Made by a program: the position numbers and the translations under genes. From a virus (taxonomy: Duplodnaviria > Heunggongvirae > Uroviricota > Caudoviricetes), in IMG/VR virus record IMGVR_UViG_2563366838_000011: DNA of 14,507 bases. One strand, 5' to 3'. Under the pieces are notes generated by a model that did not search any database, was not told where the DNA came from, and was given only the letters and a program-made list of their open reading frames with translations. Below are positions 2,938 to 13,863 of the stretch, one piece after another (position 1 is the first letter of the stretch; each line of letters opens with the position of its first letter).

Positions 2938-2967
2938 ATAAACGAAGGTGTATTGAGCCTTCTACGT

Positions 2968-3032
2968 CGCTGACAAAGCGGAATGTTCTTTAACAGGCTT
3001 TGGCGCTGACAAAGCGCAATTGTTCTTTAAAA
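2968..3032 (+). promoter_or_regulatory. 28-bp imperfect direct repeats CGCTGACAAAGCG-(G)AAT(T)-GTTCTTTAA (2968-2995 and 3004-3032); candidate operator sites in the int-alpA spacer
   Basis: two copies 36 bp apart, each with an internal CGCT/AGCG dyad; lie in the 428-bp non-coding spacer upstream of alpA. Confidence 0.4.
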
Positions 3033-3252: not shown

Positions 3253-3456
3253 ATGGCTAATTACAATTCATTAATTCGTCTCTCTGAAGTTCAAAGGCGA
3301 ACTGGTTATAGCAAAGCATGGATTTATCGTCTTATTAGTCAGGGGAGGTTCCCTAAACAGGTAAAAATTGGAAGTCGGGCAATTGCTTTTGTTGAGTCTG
3401 AAATAGATGAATGGATTGAGAAGTGTATATTAGAATCTAGAGACGAGGTGGCCTGA
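3253..3456 (+). CDS. alpA: AlpA-family phage transcriptional regulator (small HTH DNA-binding protein)
   Basis: 67-aa ORF with AGGA 9 nt upstream; sequence LIRLSEVQRRTGYSKAWIYRLISQGRFPKQVKIGSRAIAFVESEIDEWI matches the AlpA/prophage CP4-57 regulator pattern; sits second after int as in P4-like islands and PICIs. Confidence 0.85.
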   Translation: MANYNSLIRLSEVQRRTGYSKAWIYRLISQGRFPKQVKIGSRAIAFVESEIDEWIEKCILESRDEVA

Positions 3457-4733: not shown

Positions 4734-4908
4734 GCCGACAGGAACACCACAACCTCAAAAACGCTACAAAGATGCCCACGGAGCACTCGTTACTGTCGAA
4801 AGCGTGTCTCACAACCGAGTGACGTTTTATCGCGACGGGTATCAATCGCCATGCGTACAACCGCTGGCGCGCTTCATGAAGGAGTTCGCGGAGGTTAACA
4901 AATGCTAA
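4726..4908 (+). CDS. small phage protein, DUF4222-like
   Basis: 60-aa ORF from ATG at 4726 with GGAGG 6 nt upstream, overlapping the upstream stop; pattern RYKDAHGALVTVESVSHNRVTFYRDGYQSPCVQPLARFMKEFAEV resembles small prophage proteins of the DUF4222 type (from memory). Confidence 0.5.
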   Translation: MFKPTGTPQPQKRYKDAHGALVTVESVSHNRVTFYRDGYQSPCVQPLARFMKEFAEVNKC

Positions 4909-5930
4909 CCGTCCAGAAGAAGATATTTTCACTGACTGCTATGTCGCAAAAATCCAGCAATATGACAGCAAAGTCTGGCATTAATACAGCAGATACAAGC
5001 AAAGCTTATCATTTTATGGTGGTAGGAGCGGATGCCTTAACTATGTCAGAAATTACGGTCGATGGTGTTAGCGTTGAGAAGGTCAGCGGCTGCGCCAGAG
5101 AATTTCTGGTCGTAGATGACCTGTTCTGCTCGCGTAGTGACTCCACAAAAATCTTCGTCCGCACGCGCGACGTTAACGAAATGAGCGCGATGTACTGTGC
5201 CTCTGGTTCTTCCAATAGTGAGTTTTCGGAGTCCATAAAAAAGAGCTTGCCGTTATGCGGCAACACGGTTTATGGTTATAAGGCACCTCATAAAACGGGT
5301 GCCGGGATTAGGACCCCGCAGGCAATCGAGGCGATACATGACGCGCCAGCGTCTTTTTTTGTATCGGCGCACACGCACACCTTATCAATGGTGGGCTGTA
5401 TGGGGCTGACTTCGGTCAGGCTGGTTTCCTTGATTGCCAGTAGTCCTAACCCTGTACAGTCCACCGCCAGCGAGCTTAGGACCTCCGGCGGTGGCTATAA
5501 ACCATCAATCAAGGAGGCTGCCACATGCTGGCTACTACCCCTACCCAAAAACCGCAATTTATCTGGATTATCGCCGCAGTTCGCCGCGATTGCCCGACAA
5601 TTACCGCCAAAATTCATCATATTGCTGCCGAGTCTGAACGCGATGCTCGCCGTTCTCTGGTGCGCGATCACATCTGCTTTTTTGCTGGTCGTATCCGCAT
5701 GGAGGTGGCACATGATTAAAACCTACGATGTGCATATGGATCCCCTCGAACGCACAAGCCAGATCATCACACTGACAGAAGTGATTAACGACATTCTGGT
5801 GAGCAACTCTCCCTCACGAGACGAAAGACTGAAGGCGTTACTCGCGATATTGGATCTCGCCGTTCGTGACGTTCATTTCCTGCTGGAAGGTGGACAAATG
5901 CCATGCAAAACGGGGGCAACCAATGAATAA
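4902..5930 (+). CDS. uncertain long ORF (342 codons); N-terminal about 125 codons protein-like, remainder of doubtful coding character
   Basis: ATG at 4902 overlaps the upstream stop (ATGCTAA) with GGAGG 9 nt upstream; the frame stays open for 1029 nt, but 5280-5520 translates to low-complexity S/T/P/L-rich sequence and contains hairpins and a terminator-like structure; the last 72 codons (from ATG 5712) look protein-like again. Confidence 0.3.
5340..5360 (+). terminator. terminator-like hairpin GACGC-GCCA-GCGTC followed by TTTTTTT, inside the long ORF
   Basis: 5-bp GC-rich stem, 4-nt loop, 7-T run at 5354-5360; a UUCG-tetraloop hairpin (CTGAC-TTCG-GTCAG, 5405-5418) and an 8-bp dyad (CCACCGCC...GGCGGTGG, 5461-5494) lie just downstream. 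Confidence 0.3.
5525..5719 (+). CDS. hypothetical small protein, alternative frame nested in the long ORF
   Basis: 64-aa ORF with strong SD (AAGGAGG) 7 nt upstream of ATG 5525; translation ([22 protein letters not shown]...RIRMEVAHD) is more protein-like than the overlapping frame of the long ORF. Confidence 0.35.
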   Translation: MLATTPTQKPQFIWIIAAVRRDCPTITAKIHHIAAESERDARRSLVRDHICFFAGRIRMEVAHD

Positions 5931-6117
5931 CTCAATTAATACCCCTCGCCTTACGTCCGCACTTCAATTAATCGAGCAAGCAGCGGCTGTCCTGGTTGCT
6001 GTCAGTCTTTCGGCTGAAGAAATGGACGCTGCTGATGTCGTGGATGCGATTAAAGCGTGCTCATCTTTGGTTAACGATGCCCGTGCCGAGCTGGTAATTC
6101 TTGGGGGTGAAAAATGA
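5923..6117 (+). CDS. hypothetical small protein (64 aa)
   Basis: ATG at 5923 overlapping the upstream stop (ATGAATAA); in frame with the track ORF 5866-6117; first gene of a coupled small-gene operon. Confidence 0.5.
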   Translation: MNNSINTPRLTSALQLIEQAAAVLVAVSLSAEEMDAADVVDAIKACSSLVNDARAELVILGGEK

Positions 6118-6377
6118 ATATCAACTTAATTTATCGTCATCCGTGTGAGCTGGAAATTGAATCATTGCTGGGGCGCGAAGAGCCATATCCAGACACATTC
6201 ACTCCCGCAGATTGCGCGACTGAACGGCTTACCAGAGCGCGCACAGGTCTGGTTCATGTGATGAATGAGATTGTTCCCTCGGTGGGAGGGGAACAGGCGA
6301 CAGTAATCAATAGCTGGCTACAAAAAGTTACCTCCCTGATAGATATCGGTTTAATCGATGTGGAGAGTGCGAAATGA
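6114..6377 (+). CDS. hypothetical protein (87 aa)
   Basis: ATGA start/stop overlap with the upstream gene, GGGGTG upstream; no family recognised. Confidence 0.55.
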   Translation: MNINLIYRHPCELEIESLLGREEPYPDTFTPADCATERLTRARTGLVHVMNEIVPSVGGEQATVINSWLQKVTSLIDIGLIDVESAK

Positions 6378-6595
6378 CCAACATCCAGCTCATTGAAGCG
6401 CAATGTCGCATCGAACAGGTTCAGACTGTTTTAGGGTTCTGGCTTGAAGGGGCCAGCCCCAGCAACAGAGACAAGTTAATGATTGGCGCGGTTATGTCAC
6501 TGCTCAATGGCGTACCAGAAGCTATTCAGGAAGCGGACGAATTGTTGGGCAAATATGAGTTACAGAATCATTCAGGCGAGGCGAAACATGAATAA
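6374..6595 (+). CDS. hypothetical protein (73 aa)
   Basis: ATGA overlap with the upstream gene, GGAGAG upstream; no family recognised. Confidence 0.55.
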   Translation: MTNIQLIEAQCRIEQVQTVLGFWLEGASPSNRDKLMIGAVMSLLNGVPEAIQEADELLGKYELQNHSGEAKHE

Positions 6596-7190
6596 TTTCT
6601 TAACTTTCCATGCAGAAGCAACGCCTGACGGCGTAAACATCATGTACCGCAGCAACGATGGCATGACAGAACGCGTTGAGACCGTCTCATATATTGATGC
6701 CGTAAATCGTCTGGATGCCGGGGATTATGACGATAAACCAGATGAAGGCATGTTTATACATCTCGCTATTGCCAGTGGCGGCAACCAGGGATATTTCGAT
6801 TACACATCACAGCATCACGTGATTATGTGGCGCTGGCTGATAGCAACAGCATTCATCAATGAAATGAGAAAGGAAAACGGCACTGTCAGCATCATTGATG
6901 ATACTGGCAATCCTTCCGAAGTGGCTGTTTATTCCAACGGCATCGTCGCCATGCCGCTGTATCCAGTAGCAGAGCGCCTCGCTATGGCAAACAACATTGA
7001 GGGCGCGATGATAGAACGTTTTGGCATCGAGTCTGGCACAGAACGCGCCATCATTTTCTACAGAGCCATGATGGATGTGGAACAAGGAGCACTGACTCCA
7101 TTTGGTCGTGAAACGCTTGCTGAACTTCACAACAGCTTTATAGCTGAACTGAATGAAAACGGCATGCCAGCGGAACCAGTGACGCACTGA
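6588..7190 (+). CDS. hypothetical protein (200 aa)
   Basis: ATG at 6588 overlapping the upstream stop by 8 nt, GAGG upstream; in frame with the track ORF 6483-7190, whose upstream extension would overlap the previous gene extensively; no family recognised. Confidence 0.6.
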   Translation: MNNFLTFHAEATPDGVNIMYRSNDGMTERVETVSYIDAVNRLDAGDYDDKPDEGMFIHLAIASGGNQGYFDYTSQHHVIMWRWLIATAFINEMRKENGTVSIIDDTGNPSEVAVYSNGIVAMPLYPVAERLAMANNIEGAMIERFGIESGTERAIIFYRAMMDVEQGALTPFGRETLAELHNSFIAELNENGMPAEPVTH

Positions 7191-7200
7191 GGATGGAGCC

Positions 7201-7542
7201 ATGATTACTAAAAATTTCCGACTGAATGCGCTGGCAAATAAGTATGCGTCAGCACTGTATAACCACATTACCTCCACCAGCGGCGGGGACTATTTCATGA
7301 TTGATGCGGACGGAGAGGCCGTCCGTGTGGAAATCGTCAATGGAGTAAAAGGCGTTCGCAGCCTGATCGATAGTTACGCACTGGCAGCCATGAAAGTGTT
7401 CTACCCGCAGTGGGAAACCGTGGGGATCGAGCTTCTTGATCGTTGCGTCACTAAGGACAGATTGACTGACGTCGGGCGTGAGATATGGCAAAGCATGGTT
7501 AATGACATGGGCGCAACTGTAGCGGGAGGTTCTCATGCGTGA
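7201..7542 (+). CDS. hypothetical protein (113 aa)
   Basis: ATG at 7201 with GAGGATGGAG upstream, 10 nt after the upstream stop; no family recognised. Confidence 0.6.
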   Translation: MITKNFRLNALANKYASALYNHITSTSGGDYFMIDADGEAVRVEIVNGVKGVRSLIDSYALAAMKVFYPQWETVGIELLDRCVTKDRLTDVGREIWQSMVNDMGATVAGGSHA

Positions 7543-7906
7543 AAATGTAGAAATGGCGCTTAGCTCCGCAATCGGAGAGCAGGTGGCAAAGATTGCTGGT
7601 GCTGTGTGGATTCATAACCTTCATTCTACTGGTGAAGAGAAAATGGCAATTCAGACGCCAGAGGGACGCACCATTACTACATCTCTGAAGCCGTCAGATG
7701 TTTGTGATCTGATTTGCGCATTCATGTACCCAGCAATGAGGACTGTCCACGGCGATAAGTGGAAACTTGCGACAACCGCTGAATTTGATATGTGGCTAAA
7801 CAATGATGGCATGCTGACTGATTACGGAATAACCAAGTGGCAGATGCTAGTTAGCCATATCGCAAACGCTATAGACCACGTGGGGTACGGTGATGCGAAA
7901 CATTGA
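7535..7906 (+). CDS. hypothetical protein (123 aa)
   Basis: ATG at 7535 with GGGAGG upstream, overlaps the upstream stop by 8 nt and the primase start; no family recognised. Confidence 0.6.
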   Translation: MRENVEMALSSAIGEQVAKIAGAVWIHNLHSTGEEKMAIQTPEGRTITTSLKPSDVCDLICAFMYPAMRTVHGDKWKLATTAEFDMWLNNDGMLTDYGITKWQMLVSHIANAIDHVGYGDAKH

Positions 7907-10649
7907 TCTTATCCGTCAGGTTATCAGTGCGTCTGAAAACAACTGGCCTCATGTGCTGGGCTGCCTGAACATAAATGTCCCTGACTCTCCGCGCCGTCAT
8001 GCTCCCTGCCCTGCATGTGGGGGCAAAGATCGATTCCGGTTCGATGACAACGGGCGCGGTAGCTTCATCTGTAATCAGTGCGGCGCTGGTGATGGGCTGG
8101 ATTTAATTAAACGCGTAAATAACTGCGACACAACAGAGGCGGCGCTTCTTGCCGCTGATGTTCTGGGTATTGATTACCGGACAACGGAAACACCAGAAGC
8201 CACCAGCCAGAAACGGGAACAACTGGAAACCGAGCGCCAGCGACGCGAACAGGAGCGCCTGAAAAGGGCAGAGAAGGACGAACAACAAAGACGGGATACG
8301 TTTTCCCGTCAGTTTGATGACATGCGCAGAAAGGCTGTAAACGGCAAATCTGATTATCTGGTTGCGAAAGGGGTAGGTGATTTTACATTCCCCGTGTTGC
8401 CCGATGGATCTCTGTTGCTGGCGCTGGTGGATAAATCCGGCGCAGTAACAGCAGCACAGACTATTACCTCACATGGTGAAAAAAGACTCCTGACAGGTTC
8501 AGCAAAGCGAGGGGCATATCACGCCATAAACGCACCAGAAACAACACAGAGCATCTTAATCGCAGAAGGGCTGGCAACGGCATTATCTGCCCATTTAATG
8601 CGTCCAGAGGCGCTGACAGTGGCGGCGATTGATGCCGGGAACCTGTTATATGTCGCCCAGGTACTGCGGGATAAATTTCCTTCAGCACAAATCATCATTG
8701 CTGCGGATAACGACCACAGCGAAGGAAGACAAAACACGGGGAGAATAGCAGCAGAAAAAGCAGCTTTATCTGTTTCTGGATGGGTGGCATTACCCCCGAC
8801 AGATCACAAAGCAGACTGGAATGATTACCACCAAAAACACGGCATTAAATGCGCCACAGAAGCGTTCAATAAGTCAATGTACCAACCACAGGGTAATGGC
8901 GTGAAACAGGAGCCACAGACCATTGAGGGAAGCGATTTTAAGGTTATGGATACCGATCCACTGAAACCAAGAATAGAAAGCCGCGAGGATGGTATTTATT
9001 GGGTATCTCCGAGAGCTGACAGCCAGAGTGGAGAAATCATCAATAACGAAAGCTGGTTATGTTCTCCGTTAAGCGTTATCGGTACTGGCAGAGACGATAA
9101 AGACCAGTATCTCATTCTTCGCTGGCTGTCGTTTGGTTCTGAAACGCCGACAACCGCTGCCATTCCACTGGCTGATATTGGTGAACGTGAAGGATGGCGC
9201 ACACTTAAAGCTGGTGGGGTAAATGTCACGACCAAAAGCAGCCTCAGAGCAATACTGGCAGACTGGCTACAACGCAGTGGCTCTCGTGAATTGTGGCGTG
9301 TTGCTCATGCCACTGGCTGGCAATGCGGAGCGTACATCATGCCTGATGGGGAAATCATCGGAACACCTGAAAATCCTGTGCTGTTCAGCGGGAGAAGCTC
9401 AGCCGCAGCCGGATATACCGTCTCAGGGAGCGCGAAAAGCTGGCGTGATAACGTGGCGCGTCTGGCCTTTGGTAACTATTCAATGATGACCGGGATCGGC
9501 GCAGCACTGGCAGCGCCATTGATTGGGCTGGTGGGCGCTGACGGGTTCGGCATTCATTTCTATGAGCAGTCGAGCGCAGGTAAGACCACCACGGCAAACG
9601 TGGCGAGCAGCTTATACGGCAACCCTGATTTACTGCGGCTGACGTGGTACGGAACCGCGCTGGGGCTGGCAAATGAGGCCGCCGCCCACAATGACGGACT
9701 AATGCCGCTTGATGAAGTTGGTCAGGGCGCTGATCCTGTCAGCGTTTCACAGTCTGCCTATGCGTTATTTAACGGTGTAGGGAAACTGCAAGGCGCTAAA
9801 GATGGTGGAAACCGGGATCTAAAACGCTGGCGTACAGTGGCAATCAGCACCGGAGAAATGGATTTAGAAACATTTATCGCTACTTCCGGGCGAAAAACCA
9901 AAGCCGGGCAACTGGTGCGACTGCTGAATATTCCGTTGAGTAAAGCAGTACGCTTTCACGATTACCAGAACGGAAAACAGCACGCAGACGCACTGAAAGA
10001 CGCTTACCAGCATCACCACGGCGCGTCCGGGCGTGAGTGGATTAAATGGCTGGCAGACCACCAGCAACAGGCTATTAAAACCGTTCGTGACTGCGAAAGC
10101 AGATGGAGAAGCCTGATCCCATCCGATTATGGTGAGCAGGTTCACCGTGTAGCCGCGCGATTTGCCATTCTGGAGGCCGCATTGTTGTTAGGCGAGGTTG
10201 TAACAGGCTGGGATGCTCAGACATGCCGTGATGCGATACAGCACAGCTATAACGCATGGTTGCGCGAGTTCGGCACAGGTAACAAAGAGCATCAGCAGAT
10301 TATTGAACAAACGGAGGCATTTCTTAATGCCTATGGGCTTAGCCGTTTTGCACCATTTCCATACAGCCCGGCAGATTTGCCCATCAAAGATTTAGCCGGA
10401 TACCGTCAGCGTGGAGAACATGACGAAAGCCCAATGATTTTCTACACATTCCCGGCCACATTTGAAAAGGAGATCGCATGTGGTTTCAACGCAAAACAGT
10501 TTGCTGAAGTGTTGAAAAAAGCCGGGATGCTAACCCCACCAAACAGCGGTCGTGGATACCAAAGAAAATCACCACGTATTCAGGGACGACAAATAAACGT
10601 TTATGTACTCAATTACCAGCCAGGAGATTATAACTCATCTGAAGAATGA
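7893..10649 (+). CDS. primase-helicase replication protein (P4 alpha-like / PICI Pri-Rep): zinc-ribbon, TOPRIM and P-loop NTPase domains
   Basis: 918-919-aa ORF (ATG 7893, or GTG 7890 as in the track); Cys motif CPACGG...CNQCG; TOPRIM-like segment ILIAEGLATALS...IIIAADNDH; Walker A motif SSAGKTT near residue 555; iteron origin immediately downstream. Confidence 0.88.
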   Translation: MRNIDLIRQVISASENNWPHVLGCLNINVPDSPRRHAPCPACGGKDRFRFDDNGRGSFICNQCGAGDGLDLIKRVNNCDTTEAALLAADVLGIDYRTTETPEATSQKREQLETERQRREQERLKRAEKDEQQRRDTFSRQFDDMRRKAVNGKSDYLVAKGVGDFTFPVLPDGSLLLALVDKSGAVTAAQTITSHGEKRLLTGSAKRGAYHAINAPETTQSILIAEGLATALSAHLMRPEALTVAAIDAGNLLYVAQVLRDKFPSAQIIIAADNDHSEGRQNTGRIAAEKAALSVSGWVALPPTDHKADWNDYHQKHGIKCATEAFNKSMYQPQGNGVKQEPQTIEGSDFKVMDTDPLKPRIESREDGIYWVSPRADSQSGEIINNESWLCSPLSVIGTGRDDKDQYLILRWLSFGSETPTTAAIPLADIGEREGWRTLKAGGVNVTTKSSLRAILADWLQRSGSRELWRVAHATGWQCGAYIMPDGEIIGTPENPVLFSGRSSAAAGYTVSGSAKSWRDNVARLAFGNYSMMTGIGAALAAPLIGLVGADGFGIHFYEQSSAGKTTTANVASSLYGNPDLLRLTWYGTALGLANEAAAHNDGLMPLDEVGQGADPVSVSQSAYALFNGVGKLQGAKDGGNRDLKRWRTVAISTGEMDLETFIATSGRKTKAGQLVRLLNIPLSKAVRFHDYQNGKQHADALKDAYQHHHGASGREWIKWLADHQQQAIKTVRDCESRWRSLIPSDYGEQVHRVAARFAILEAALLLGEVVTGWDAQTCRDAIQHSYNAWLREFGTGNKEHQQIIEQTEAFLNAYGLSRFAPFPYSPADLPIKDLAGYRQRGEHDESPMIFYTFPATFEKEIACGFNAKQFAEVLKKAGMLTPPNSGRGYQRKSPRIQGRQINVYVLNYQPGDYNSSEE

Positions 10650-10674
10650 GCTTCTTCATGTGCGTAGAAAAGGT

Positions 10675-10785
10675 GTTGGTTCAGTTGGTTCAGTTGGTTC
10701 AATTTGTAAAGAGTATTGTTTTATAAGGATTTTATTCTTTTTATTGAACCAACACTGAACCAACAACACGGTATTTTGAACCAAC
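10675..10785 (+). repeat. iteron-type replication origin: three tandem GTTGGTTCA (10675-10701), 43-bp AT-rich spacer, three inverted copies TGAACCAAC (10745-10753, 10756-10764, 10777-10785)
   Basis: read directly from sequence; sits just 3' of the primase-helicase gene, the usual ori position in P4-like satellites and PICIs; the track ORFs overlapping it (10656-10895 minus, 10716-10967 plus) are probably spurious. Confidence 0.7.
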
Positions 10786-10836
10786 ACAATGTGACTGAAT
10801 TGATGCGCACAACACCTGGCTGGCATCAGAGAGTGT

Positions 10837-10911
10837 TTTACGAGACTTTCGTAAAATCCTGTGTACAAGGGCGTGACGTTTTTGAAAGTGAGCACTACGA
10901 AATTTTCGTAG
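10837..10911 (+). promoter_or_regulatory. two related dyads TTTACGA-N5-TCGTAAA (10837-10855) and CTACGAA-ATT-TTCGTAG (10895-10911); candidate operator pair
   Basis: 7-bp perfect inverted arms sharing an ACGA/TCGT core, about 58 bp apart, in the non-coding region between the ori and the downstream operon. Confidence 0.3.
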
Positions 10912-11105
10912 TTCAGAAAACAGCCTCTGAGAAGTTGTTATGCCTGTTCAGCAAACCATCCGCATAGCTGATCGCGAATCAAATTACCAATGGAGCCAGA
11001 AGCAAGGGCAGAACTGAAAAGCGCCTGCCGTGAAGAGTAATGCGACACCATAAATATAGTTTTTAGAGTCCATAAAAAACCTGTCAAAACCTGACACACA
11101 GAACG

Positions 11106-11411: not shown

Positions 11412-11873
11412 ATGGAACTAAAATTTATTGATAACCCTGTGCGATTACAGGCCTTTCTTAACGAGCCAGGCAATACCGAAAATATTGTTGAGCCGGGGCA
11501 CACGTACTACATCAAGCCTGATGCGGTATATCTCGGCATCTACGAAGGATTAGTGCTGGCTGGCGTTCATGAAGTGCGTAACTTCTGGCATAGCGTTGTT
11601 GAATGCCATGCGGTGTACGACCCCGGATTCCGTGGTGAATATGCACTGCAAGGACATCGATTATTCTGCAAATGGCTTCTCGAAAACTCACCATTCCTTA
11701 ACAGCATCACTATGGTTCCTGACACCACGAAATACGGACGGGCAATTATCCGTTTGCTTGGCGCTACCCGTGTTGGTCACCTTGATGATGCTTATATCAG
11801 ATGTGGTAAACCCGTCGGCGTAACGCTTTATCAGTTAACTCGGCAACAATATAAGGAATTCAGCGAATGTTAA
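11412..11873 (+). CDS. hypothetical phage protein (153 aa), first gene of the virion-protein-like operon
   Basis: ATG at 11412, 17 nt after the small ORF; its stop overlaps the next start (ATGTTAA); no family recognised; occupies the position of P22 gp14 in a 14-7-20-16-like gene order (positional inference only). Confidence 0.6.
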   Translation: MELKFIDNPVRLQAFLNEPGNTENIVEPGHTYYIKPDAVYLGIYEGLVLAGVHEVRNFWHSVVECHAVYDPGFRGEYALQGHRLFCKWLLENSPFLNSITMVPDTTKYGRAIIRLLGATRVGHLDDAYIRCGKPVGVTLYQLTRQQYKEFSEC

Positions 11874-12544
11874 TTACCCATATAGCTCATAAACATCTCA
11901 ATCGTGCCGTATACGAAAAAGGCGGTGATGGTGGTGCCTCTAAAGCTCAGGCGAAGGCCCAGCAGCAGGCAATTGATTTGCAGCGCGAGCAGTGGAATAC
12001 GGTGATGAATAATCTCAAGCCGTATGCAGAAGTCGGATTGCCTGCTTTACAACAACTACAAGGACTGATGACTCTGGAAGGGCAGAATAAAGCCGCGAAT
12101 GATTTCTTTGGTTCTGGTTTATATAAAACACAGGCAGATCAGGCCCGTTATCAGAACCTTGTCTCAGCAGAAGCTACCGGGGGGCTTGGCTCAACAGCTA
12201 CCAGTAACCAGTTATCTTCCATTGCGCCCATGCTTTATAACAATTGGCTTAGTGGGCAAATGCAAAATTATGGAAACCTGCTAAATGTCGGGATGAATGC
12301 GGCATCAGGGCAGGCAACGGCAGGGCAAAACTACGCCAATAATACCGGACAACTCTTGCAGGGGCTTGGCGCTATTCGTGCAGGTCAGGCGCAGCAGCCA
12401 TCCAGTCTTGCGCGTGGTATTGGTGGGGCAGCATCAGGCGCTTTAGCGGGTGCGCAACTTGGTTCCGTTGTTCCTGGAATAGGAACTGCGGCCGGCGCTA
12501 TTGGTGGTGGGCTTATTGGTCTTGTTGGGGGGCTTGGATTCTAA
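11867..12544 (+). CDS. putative phage DNA-ejection/internal virion protein with C-terminal glycine-zipper segment
   Basis: 225-aa ORF with AAGGA upstream; Gln/Asn/Ala-rich middle; C-terminus GIGGAASGALAGAQLGSVVPGIGTAAGAIGGGLIGLVGGLGF made of GxxxG/GxxxA repeats typical of membrane-inserting glycine zippers; size and position resemble P22 gp7-type ejection proteins (inference). Confidence 0.6.
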   Translation: MLITHIAHKHLNRAVYEKGGDGGASKAQAKAQQQAIDLQREQWNTVMNNLKPYAEVGLPALQQLQGLMTLEGQNKAANDFFGSGLYKTQADQARYQNLVSAEATGGLGSTATSNQLSSIAPMLYNNWLSGQMQNYGNLLNVGMNAASGQATAGQNYANNTGQLLQGLGAIRAGQAQQPSSLARGIGGAASGALAGAQLGSVVPGIGTAAGAIGGGLIGLVGGLGF

Positions 12545-13863
12545 TGGCGACATGGCAACTTGGCGGGCTGCCTAGCATGGCACCGCAAAATGATAATGCT
12601 CCTCGTTCTTCCGTTCCTCAGCCTGTGCAGTATCAGCAGCAGCCAAACGTAGGTTTAATGGCGCTACAGGGGCTAAGAGGCGTTGCTGAGATTAATCAGC
12701 AGGCGCAAATTTCCCAGCAGCTAAAAGAATATCAGGCACGGTTGGGTAGTGCGGTAGCTAATAATGATCGTGTTGGCGTGCATAAGTTAATGGCCCAGTA
12801 TCCCCAGTTTATGGCTGATTCTCAAAAACAGATGGGATTCATTGATGCTGAGCAAAATCGGCAGACCGCTGACGCTGCCATGAATCTGCGTCTTGCGTCA
12901 CAAACTGGAGATCCACTGACCATGCAGAAGGCCATTCAGCAGGCAAATCCAGTATTACAGCGATTTGGTCTTCCTGCTGAAGAGGTTTATCAGTCTTGGC
13001 AGAATGACCCACAGGAATTCAACAGAATCACTGACCTCATCCACCTCCATGCTGATCCAAATAGTTACTTTAGTGTTCAAGAGAAGCAGCAAGGGCAGAG
13101 TATTGCACAGCAGAACGCAGATACATCTGCATATAATGCTCAGGTTAATGCGGAGCAGGGTAATCGGCGGCTCGATATGGAGCAGTTCAAAGTCCTATCC
13201 GATAACCAACTACGCACGAGAGAAATGGTTCTGAAAGCACGACTTGGACGTGCTCAAAATGACATCGAGAGAGACAAGCTCAATGCTGAACTGAGCAAGG
13301 TACAGCAGGCGAAAGTGGAGAAGATGAACGATAAAATTAATACTGTTGCAGGTAATATCGACTCCTTGAACTCTGCGCTTGAAGTGGGTCATGAACTGGC
13401 GGGAATTGTAGGGAAACATCCTTCGGCCGTTACCCGTTCGCAGAACTATAACCCCCTGACGCTGGGGTTTGGATTCCTCCCTGATGTAGCAGAAGACACA
13501 CGAAGCCTACGCGCCAAAGCTGATGAATACAACCTAAAGGTTATTCTGCCTAGCCTAAAAGGTACTTTTGGCTCTAACCCAACCGAAGGGGAAAGGGCTG
13601 CCCTTATGCAATCTCAAAATGGCATTAAGTCAGCAACCAGCAATGAGGCATTTTTGCGAGAGTTGAATAAAGCGCAGGACGTAATTATTCGAATGCAGAA
13701 ACGACAGATTGCCGGGCTCGGTATTCCTGTAACCAAATCTAAGGACGAAGAAACTGATACCAAAATGCTGTTGCAGGATCCTTCACTGGTTAAGGATTAT
13801 GTGACCGCACATGGCTATCTGCCGGAAAGTTACTATCAGGCAAAACTTAAGGGATGGCAATGA
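12544..13863 (+). CDS. putative phage ejection/internal virion protein, Gln-rich coiled-coil protein (439 aa)
   Basis: start overlaps the upstream stop (TAATG); very Gln/Ala/Asn-rich with heptad-like charged stretches (LRTREMVLKARLGRAQNDIERDKLNAELSKVQQAKVEKMNDKIN); no family recognised; positional analog of P22 gp20 or T7 gp15 (inference). Confidence 0.6.
   Translation: MATWQLGGLPSMAPQNDNAPRSSVPQPVQYQQQPNVGLMALQGLRGVAEINQQAQISQQLKEYQARLGSAVANNDRVGVHKLMAQYPQFMADSQKQMGFIDAEQNRQTADAAMNLRLASQTGDPLTMQKAIQQANPVLQRFGLPAEEVYQSWQNDPQEFNRITDLIHLHADPNSYFSVQEKQQGQSIAQQNADTSAYNAQVNAEQGNRRLDMEQFKVLSDNQLRTREMVLKARLGRAQNDIERDKLNAELSKVQQAKVEKMNDKINTVAGNIDSLNSALEVGHELAGIVGKHPSAVTRSQNYNPLTLGFGFLPDVAEDTRSLRAKADEYNLKVILPSLKGTFGSNPTEGERAALMQSQNGIKSATSNEAFLRELNKAQDVIIRMQKRQIAGLGIPVTKSKDEETDTKMLLQDPSLVKDYVTAHGYLPESYYQAKLKGWQ

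Follow-up and report, generated by a model that had tools for sequence, protein, structure and literature searches.

In the immI region of phages P1 and P7 (c4, icd, ant), the C4 antisense RNA blocks the ribosome-binding site of icd, and the genes downstream need icd translation. The eta/kil/CI logic of P4 and matches to the C4 and isrK RNA families in Gram-negative phage-inducible chromosomal islands (PICIs) have been described (PMC10111431, section 20), as has a scheme that divides these islands into integration, Bro, replication and late zones (PMC10111431). One island of this kind, EcCIMP1 of Escherichia coli MP1, has been shown experimentally to undergo excision, circularisation and transduction with the P22-like Kapi1 as its helper (Pick, Stadel and Raivio 2025, PMC11773190); it requires alpA and adds to superinfection immunity against the helper via an unidentified gene (PMC11773190). 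Here we analyse a stretch of 14,507 nucleotides (nt) from a virus record (IMG/VR IMGVR_UViG_2563366838_000011), called the window at its full length, which is 98.3% identical in nucleotide sequence to EcCIMP1 from thrW to past 14.3 kb and carries an identical gene array. At 5923-7906 this array includes six small genes, g1 to g6, that appear in the EcCIMP1 paper as hypothetical proteins with no function given and none annotated in its supplements (PMC11773190). An earlier reading of the window from its letters alone (the original prediction) rightly placed them in a satellite or PICI at thrW and regarded them as candidate accessory or interference cargo. We consider it likely that the six genes are instead the middle of one translationally coupled early and replication operon of an EcCIMP1-type PICI, gated by a C4 RNA and patterned on the left operon of P4. 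The element and the operon plan are already known; what is new is the remote-homology assignment of one gene, g4, to a fused, divergent member of the P4 Cnr family, which bears on replication control in EcCIMP1-type islands. A hypothetical block found in about 9% of complete E. coli genomes is thus placed in a regulatory and functional frame, in which it would be expressed, together with the primase, only when the C4 gate on the Icd open reading frame (ORF) is open.

The coupled chain comprises the following genes, with lengths in amino acids (aa):

5525-5719, plus strand: Icd/Kil-like ORF, 64 aa, first translated gene of the chain (NCBIfam NF033153, E 9.8e-20)
5712-5930, plus strand: g0, 72 aa, acidic; shares 8 nt with icd and another 8 nt with g1
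5923-6117, plus strand: g1, 64 aa, pI 4.2, an orphan
6114-6377, plus strand: g2, 87 aa
6374-6595, plus strand: g3, 73 aa, phrog_20558
6588-7190, plus strand: g4, 200 aa, net charge -18; N-terminal domain followed by a C-terminal Cnr-like domain
7201-7542, plus strand: g5, 113 aa, phrog_37628
7535-7906, plus strand: g6, 123 aa, from a family of 21 clusters
7893-10649, plus strand: primase-helicase (zinc ribbon, Toprim_3, DUF927; Pfam, PHROG), last gene of the coupled chain

The six genes of 64, 87, 73, 200, 113 and 123 codons lie exactly where they had been predicted, and the description of them as standing between a regulatory zone and the replication gene is borne out by RNA genes on the 5' side and the primase gene on the 3' side. 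The claim that they are chained by ATGA or 8-nt overlaps holds for four junctions: g1/g2 and g2/g3 each share the 4 nt of an ATGA, and 8 nt are shared at g3/g4 (ATGAATAA) and at g5/g6 (ATGCGTGA). It does not hold for g4/g5, where a 10-nt gap bears the Shine-Dalgarno-like GAGGATGGAG with no overlap, and the chain begins two ORFs 5' of g1, with the Icd/Kil-like ORF and then g0. The Icd/Kil-like ORF is 41% identical to the C-terminal (kil) part of a 137-aa ORF of P4. At the far end the predicted overlap with the primase-helicase start was found as well, by 14 nt to the ATG at 7893 or by 17 nt to a GTG at 7890. A purine-rich Shine-Dalgarno-like motif precedes every start, inside the upstream gene.

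This chained layout is shared by 17 loci spread over at least 10 genera (Escherichia, Kluyvera, Shimwellia, Scandinavium, Enterobacter, Kosakonia, Lonsdalea, Klebsiella, Cedecea, Atlantibacter and Salmonella), with overlaps of 4 or 8 nt and a single gap of 7-16 nt, usually 9-10 nt, after the g4 family; such recurrence exceeds chance. Because of it, and because of pN/pS values of 0.0-0.5 for every gene (against E. coli variants and other genera), which indicate purifying selection, and of the family sizes (551 clusters for g4, 137 for g5 and 21 for g6 at 90% identity, all from Enterobacterales and all labelled 'hypothetical'), the six ORFs are taken to be real genes. The order is Icd, variable small genes, the g2 family, the g3 family or a 66-aa alternative, g4, g5, g6 (rarely) and primase, and the 5' part of the chain is exchanged between islands (families G, H, I, J, L and M). 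Judged from this gene order, the block is a conserved-order operon with cassette replacement chiefly at both ends. No promoter-like or terminator-like site was found in a scan of the plus strand within 5923-7906, and composition does not break at the block; together with the conserved order, the embedding in a C4-gated coupled operon and the Cnr-like g4, this argues against the word 'cargo' in the original prediction. Its statement that no family could be recognised is matched by Pfam, NCBIfam and PADLOC scans of the six products, all empty at threshold, but fails for the C-terminal domain of g4, a remote Cnr homologue. PHROG places the products of g3, g4 and g5 in families without a known function.

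Upstream of the chain lie the elements of the proposed gate:

5283-5359, plus strand: isrK-like RNA, counterpart of the P4 seqA/upstream target region (Rfam RF01394, 63 bits)
5384-5471, plus strand: C4/CI-type antisense immunity RNA (Rfam RF01695, 80.2 bits)
5476-5517, plus strand: two sites in the leader of the first ORF that C4 would target (TTAGGAC at 5476-5482; CAATCAAGGA at 5506-5515)

In the predicted fold of the C4 RNA, the loop TCCTTGATTG (5427-5436) is exposed and GTCCTAA (5443-5449) is single-stranded. The target CAATCAAGGA is an exact 10-nt complement of the loop TCCTTGATTG and overlaps the Icd Shine-Dalgarno sequence AAGGAGG (5511-5517), while GTCCTAA pairs with TTAGGAC on both sides, 3' at 5476-5482 and 5' at 5308-5314 within the isrK-like RNA, the 3' end of which is a terminator-like hairpin (5340-5353) followed by a T run. 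P4 has the C4 and isrK families 5' of its Icd/Kil ORF as well, and so have 15 of 16 related island loci. In each of 17 elements compared, P4 among them, the loop finds an exact complement of 8-11 nt at positions -17 to -22 of the icd start, and at least 10 different loop sequences occur; one related locus (L003), for instance, has the loop allele TCCTTCAGA, differing from TCCTTGATTG of the window. Because loop and target change together across the 17 elements, which amounts to compensatory covariation, the comparison strongly supports an RNA gate on translation of the chain's first ORF. The at least 10 loop specificities also suggest many immunity types among these islands. The window and EcCIMP1 (L109) align with a single break, at 5363-5418 in the 5' half of the C4 RNA, and since this break falls inside the RNA the two probably have different immunity specificities.

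The functional lead within the block comes from g4, whose product has an N-terminal domain (about residues 1-117) with an MWRW motif and a Cnr-like C-terminal domain (about residues 120-200). Run by HMMER against 1.84 billion cluster representatives, the g4 profile recovered 146 family members, 105 of them at E<=1e-10; the family is one of two-domain proteins, the C-terminal part of about 85 aa being also found alone. A hidden Markov model (HMM) of this C-terminal domain scores P4 Cnr at 22.4 bits (E 4.9e-9), where 300 shuffled sequences gave at most 4.0 bits, and hhalign places the domain on Cnr (ORF106, DUF5375) with a probability of 94.5% and E 7.5e-8 over Cnr residues 35-101. The motifs xIEGxxIxxxGxExG and LSxxGxxVxxEL are common to Cnr and the last 80 or so residues of g4. 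A phmmer search with Cnr gave 11 representatives at E<0.005; DUF5375 is the sole Pfam family matched by more than one member of the g4 family, and one representative (P0401), encoded in a kil-like context, is itself a genuine DUF5375 protein. These profile comparisons identify the g4 C-terminal domain as a homologue of P4 Cnr/DUF5375. The link is clear only once a diverse family profile is used: BLASTP and hhalign comparisons of the g4, g5 and g6 alignments with the single Cnr sequence gave weak matches (E 0.014-0.3), and a scan of viral contigs for Cnr relatives returned 80 near-identical P4 copies, too uniform for a profile. An AlphaFold (AF2) model of g4 from 86 sequences reached a pLDDT of 93, a first run with 27 close homologues (pLDDT 52) having been discarded; no structural neighbour of the model was matched among solved folds, and a sequence search of the PDB with the g4 profile gave no match.

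In the work of Terzano (1994) and Ziegelin (1997), Cnr reportedly limits P4 replication, acting on the alpha primase-helicase at the origin. By analogy, g4 most likely sets or limits replication of the island via the primase-helicase/origin complex. The P4 protein resembles the C-terminal domain of g4 in sequence and in its place upstream of the primase gene, but it is half the length of g4, and Cnr function is known from P4 alone. In 19 of 19 contexts a g4-family gene adjoins the primase gene on its 5' side or is separated from it by g5 alone (in the window, by g5 and g6). For comparison, the cnr family lies in the epsilon-alpha interval of 90% of P4-like satellites (PMC8628076).

The two genes between g4 and the primase appear to be related to each other. 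Profiles of g5 and g6 align by hhalign at E 1.7e-4 over 90 columns, and the two products are 22.7% identical over 97 aa by blastp, so that they are probably distant paralogues derived from an old duplication. Their link to the Cnr domain is only suggestive: g5 aligns with the C-terminal domain of g4 at E 8.5e-4 over 43 columns, with an LTxxGRE motif in both, in a comparison of about 170 profile pairs. As Cnr-like domains in their own right g5 and g6 were rejected as not significant, the g4 C-domain HMM scoring them at 6.9 and 3.6 bits, within shuffled controls (up to 10.9 bits). In 11 of the 17 loci g5 stands between g4 and the primase gene, and g6 is rare. A sequence search of the PDB with the g5 profile gave no match, and an association of g5 with yfdR proved to be a rearrangement junction. 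Both g4 and g5 have relatives in the Stx phage phi467 (Escherichia, LN997803.1; L100/L102), where at 26.9-28.5 kb a g5-like gene (63% identity) and a g4-like gene (35-40% over about 172 aa, probably annotated too short) flank a gene of the ORF6N antirepressor type in the early-left region.

For g6, the only PDB family matched by its profile is ubiquitin, at E 0.4-1.5 per domain. Two stretches typical of ubiquitin match in the same order, GRTITTSLKPSDV against GKTITLEVEPSDT and DGMLTDYGITK against DGRTLSDYNIQK, and 0 of 2000 shuffles reach the same score; NEDD8 obtains only 2.6 bits, and a reciprocal Pfam scan of 15 members of the g6 family found no ubiquitin model. The match probably points mostly to chance, and it seems very improbable that g6, and perhaps also g5, is a ubiquitin-like beta-grasp protein carried by the satellite. 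If it were, g6 might serve a bacterial ubiquitin-like conjugation pathway as decoy or modifier, or might bind helper proteins.

The 5' genes of the chain offer fewer leads. Confined to E. coli-type islands, g0 (pN/pS 0.22) occupies the position of P4 epsilon; g1 has a pN/pS of 0.13, and 490 of 5426 complete E. coli genomes carry the two at >=95% identity. Neither has a family match in Pfam, NCBIfam and PHROG scans. The most widespread small family of the chain is that of g2 (14 of 17 loci), which has no Pfam or PDB match; 9 of 17 loci carry g3 and 7 others have an unrelated 66-aa family in its stead, and the g3 profile has no match in the PDB. Relatives of g1, g2 and g3 beyond these islands were not detected. 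Paralogy among g0-g3, suspected from helix-loop-helix patterns, was rejected (blastp E>0.2, hhalign E>0.004), and kinship of g1-g3 with one another or with P4 epsilon or orf151 could not be demonstrated by blastp or hhalign. Small, acidic and placed where P4 has epsilon and orf151, the products of g0-g3 would most likely serve as early accessory proteins, binding proteins of the helper or the host.

Set beside the P4 left operon, the window has an isrK-like RNA, a C4/CI RNA and an Icd/Kil first ORF in the same order, with the same complementarity between loop and ribosome-binding site, 8-nt overlaps after kil, a Cnr-homologous domain 5' of a zinc-ribbon/Toprim primase and a long eta-like ORF over the RNA genes. 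In P4 the CI RNA is the Rfam C4 match at 8420-8507, the annotated 137-aa ORF has kil as its Icd-like C-terminal part, and the kil/epsilon and epsilon/orf151 junctions are 8-nt overlaps. Unlike P4, the window has no homologue of epsilon or orf151 and carries six or seven unrelated small proteins instead: no chain product matches epsilon (PF25738) in Pfam, and hhalign of all chain families against P4 epsilon gave nothing. The Cnr-like domain of the window is fused to an N-terminal domain of about 115 aa, the helicase half of its primase is of the DUF927 type where that of P4 is D5_N/Pox_D5, and an iteron origin follows the primase gene. Its late genes are P22-like (DUF2824, gp7, injectosome), with no sid, delta or psu; these markers of P4-like satellites, which SatelliteFinder defines by psu, delta, sid, alpA, epsilon, alpha and int, were absent among the window proteins scanned against Pfam. 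The window and the immI region of P1/P7 both have a C4-family antisense RNA complementary to the ribosome-binding site of an Icd-family ORF, but what follows icd in the window is a nine-gene chain ending in primase in place of an antirepressor gene, and the AntA/AntB gene lies 5' of the RNA. These likenesses link the early region of PICIs with P22-type helpers to the P4 left operon, in support of shared ancestry for the control and replication modules of two satellite classes whose late genes are wholly different.

The long frame over the RNA genes is itself part of this likeness:

4902-5930, plus strand: 'Ash family'/eta-like ORF, 342 codons, spanning the isrK and C4 genes and ending in frame with g0

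This ORF is translationally coupled to the DUF4222 gene via ATGCTAA. Pfam Phage_ASH matches its residues 124-219, which correspond to the RNA gene region, and matches the P4 137-aa eta/kil ORF too, but not epsilon; the Pfam 'Ash' annotation thus proves to cover an RNA gene region, and PF10554 serves as the epsilon marker in PMC8628076. The related loci checked likewise have an open frame of 237-356 codons over C4, which shares the reading frame of g0 in E. coli islands and that of icd elsewhere; it recalls the nested eta/kil genes of P4. Labels given by PGAP vary among near-identical islands ('ash', 'Icd-like' or pseudogene), and g0 is often unannotated.

Taken together, these elements suggest how the operon may work. 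In a quiescent island the C4 RNA would pair with the ribosome-binding site of the Icd/Kil-like ORF, a pairing to which both complementarity and covariation point. With this ORF untranslated, ribosomes would not enter the chain, and the genes through primase would stay silent, presumably by premature termination and Rho-dependent polarity, on the model of P4 and P1. Repression might be overcome by helper-triggered transcription from the alpA side or by read-through of the eta-like ORF, after which ribosomes would pass from gene to gene via the 4- and 8-nt overlaps, delivering g0-g6 and primase together, and g4, as its homology to Cnr suggests, would set or restrain replication of the island at the primase-helicase/origin complex. 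The coupling geometry, the RNA with its complementarity and covariation, the Icd/Kil and Cnr homologies, the synteny and the purifying selection that underlie this picture can all be shown by comparing sequences.

Several points weigh against it. The g4-Cnr match falls below the Pfam gathering threshold, being a remote homology and the sole functional lead among the six products, and g4 has an extra N-terminal domain of about 115 aa that is absent from Cnr. Partner specificity is blurred, since g4-family genes pair with two kinds of primase C-terminal half (DUF927 or P4-type), and in phage phi467 the g4-like gene lies away from the primase gene. The Ash/eta-like ORF is intact in the window but interrupted in EcCIMP1/MP1, where it is a pseudogene, and in strain W46; broken in the functional EcCIMP1, it cannot be essential. 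Finally, the superinfection-immunity gene of EcCIMP1 could sit in this block.

That last point belongs to an alternative, closer to the original prediction, in which at least one of g0-g3, g5 and g6 binds proteins of the helper (Kapi1 or P22-like) or of the host, and thereby blocks helper reproduction, redirects packaging or causes the immunity to Kapi1. The products are small and acidic (pI 4.2-5.6 for all six), like many phage-encoded protein inhibitors; the 5' part of the chain is swapped among islands; and the equivalent position in P4 holds epsilon, a helper-directed protein. Nevertheless, no product matches a defence or anti-defence family, the order of g2, g3, g4 and g5 is kept across genera, and g0 and g1 are 95-100% conserved in the 490 E. 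coli genomes, under purifying selection throughout, which is not the pattern of an arms race. Moreover, the genes would be repressed by C4 in the resting island, and constitutive lysogen immunity derived from them is therefore unlikely. With no positive evidence for helper interference by the five genes other than g4, we give this explanation, as a whole, perhaps one chance in a few; the five remain candidates for helper manipulation, for which the helper Kapi1 and genetics are at hand. Anti-phage or toxin-like modules, which had also been proposed, found no match in PADLOC or among toxin families; under PADLOC models at E<=0.01, five of the six products had no match, and g1 had two sub-threshold CARF matches (E 0.008). 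It would be surprising, then, if the block were a toxin-like or abortive-infection module with a toxin-antitoxin pair or a growth-arrest set among its small overlapping ORFs. Overlapping pairs of small genes do resemble toxin-antitoxin layouts, and the neighbouring Icd/Kil-like ORF comes from a family of cell-division inhibitors or killers, but none of the six matches a toxin, an antitoxin or a PADLOC family, the block has no autoregulatory promoter, its overlaps form a uniform chain of nine genes, not pairs, and the sole member of a toxic family, icd, stands outside the six.

The block could conversely be devoted as a whole to replication, with g4-g6 as diverged Cnr-like modulators of the primase-helicase and g1-g3 as helpers at the origin or in helicase loading. 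This is favoured by the homology of the g4 C-domain to Cnr, by the kinship of g5 and g6 (E 1.7e-4), by the LTxxGRE match of g5 to the g4 C-domain, and by position, g4-g6 lying immediately 5' of the primase gene and an iteron origin after it. Yet E 8.5e-4 is only suggestive given about 170 profile pairs, the g4 C-domain HMM scores g5 and g6 no better than shuffles, many islands with the same primase do without both genes, the g5-like gene of phi467 lies away from replication genes, and nothing supports such roles for g1-g3. This explanation is doubtful, a little more so than helper interference. Nor could all six be assigned to ordinary replication accessories present in every relative, the outcome that the original prediction had named as contrary to its own: one of the six could be assigned, g1 and g6 are lineage-restricted, and g5 is found in 11 of the 17 loci. 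A C4-gated operon on the P4 plan, with g4 as its Cnr-like member, remains the reading that we prefer.

The primase that ends the chain is 33% identical to the N-terminal part of P4 alpha, and directly after its stop codon lie origin-like repeats:

10673-10787, no strand assigned: origin-like iterons, GTTGGTTCA three times in direct orientation, then TGAACCAAC three times inverted

The GTTGGTTCA copies are spaced by 9 bp, and an AT-rich spacer of about 40 bp precedes the TGAACCAAC copies. Primases of related islands are mosaic: those of L004, L005, L007 and L017 share with the window an N-terminal part of about 346 aa (zinc ribbon and Toprim) at 71-73% identity, and the C-terminal half is either of the DUF927 type or of the P4-family type. 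A 22-nt repeat, AGTTTT(C/T)(G/A)GAGTCCATAAAAAA, occurs 5' of isrK/C4 at 5221-5242 and again 3' of the primase gene at 11058-11079 and 10901-10922; these copies have 91% and 77% identity and are reminiscent of the repeats common to P4 ori and crr.

The remaining landmarks of the window are these:

1-1254: proA
1369-1444: thrW tRNA-Thr
1610-2824: integrase
3253-3456: AlpA
11412-13863 and beyond: late zone with P22-like virion/ejection genes (DUF2824, gp7, injectosome translocase)

After AlpA come, in order, a 143-aa ORF (h143), an AntA/AntB antirepressor, the DUF4222 protein, the long 'Ash' ORF, the small-gene chain and the primase, and coupling extends 5' of the chain in overlaps of 1 nt (alpA/h143), 8 nt (antA/DUF4222) and 7 nt (DUF4222/'Ash'). 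This layout agrees with the zones of a Gram-negative PICI: int and alpA first, then Bro-network genes accompanied by immunity RNAs, a primase next to an origin, and helper-derived late genes. The DUF2824 gene is annotated as possibly acting in head morphogenesis (PMC11773190), and the P22-like late genes fit a P22-like helper such as Kapi1. A natural deletion in E. coli F5656C1 (L105) fuses the 143-aa ORF to g0, with loss of antA, DUF4222, the RNA genes and icd, and leaves the chain g1-g4-primase directly after alpA with no C4 gate. The int-alpA RNA (Rfam RF02996) is absent from the window at the gathering threshold and is found between int and alpA in the related islands L004, L007, L011, L013, L016-L018 and L099; the int-alpA spacer of the window contains, at 2967-3020, two 17-nt direct repeats with terminator-like hairpins.

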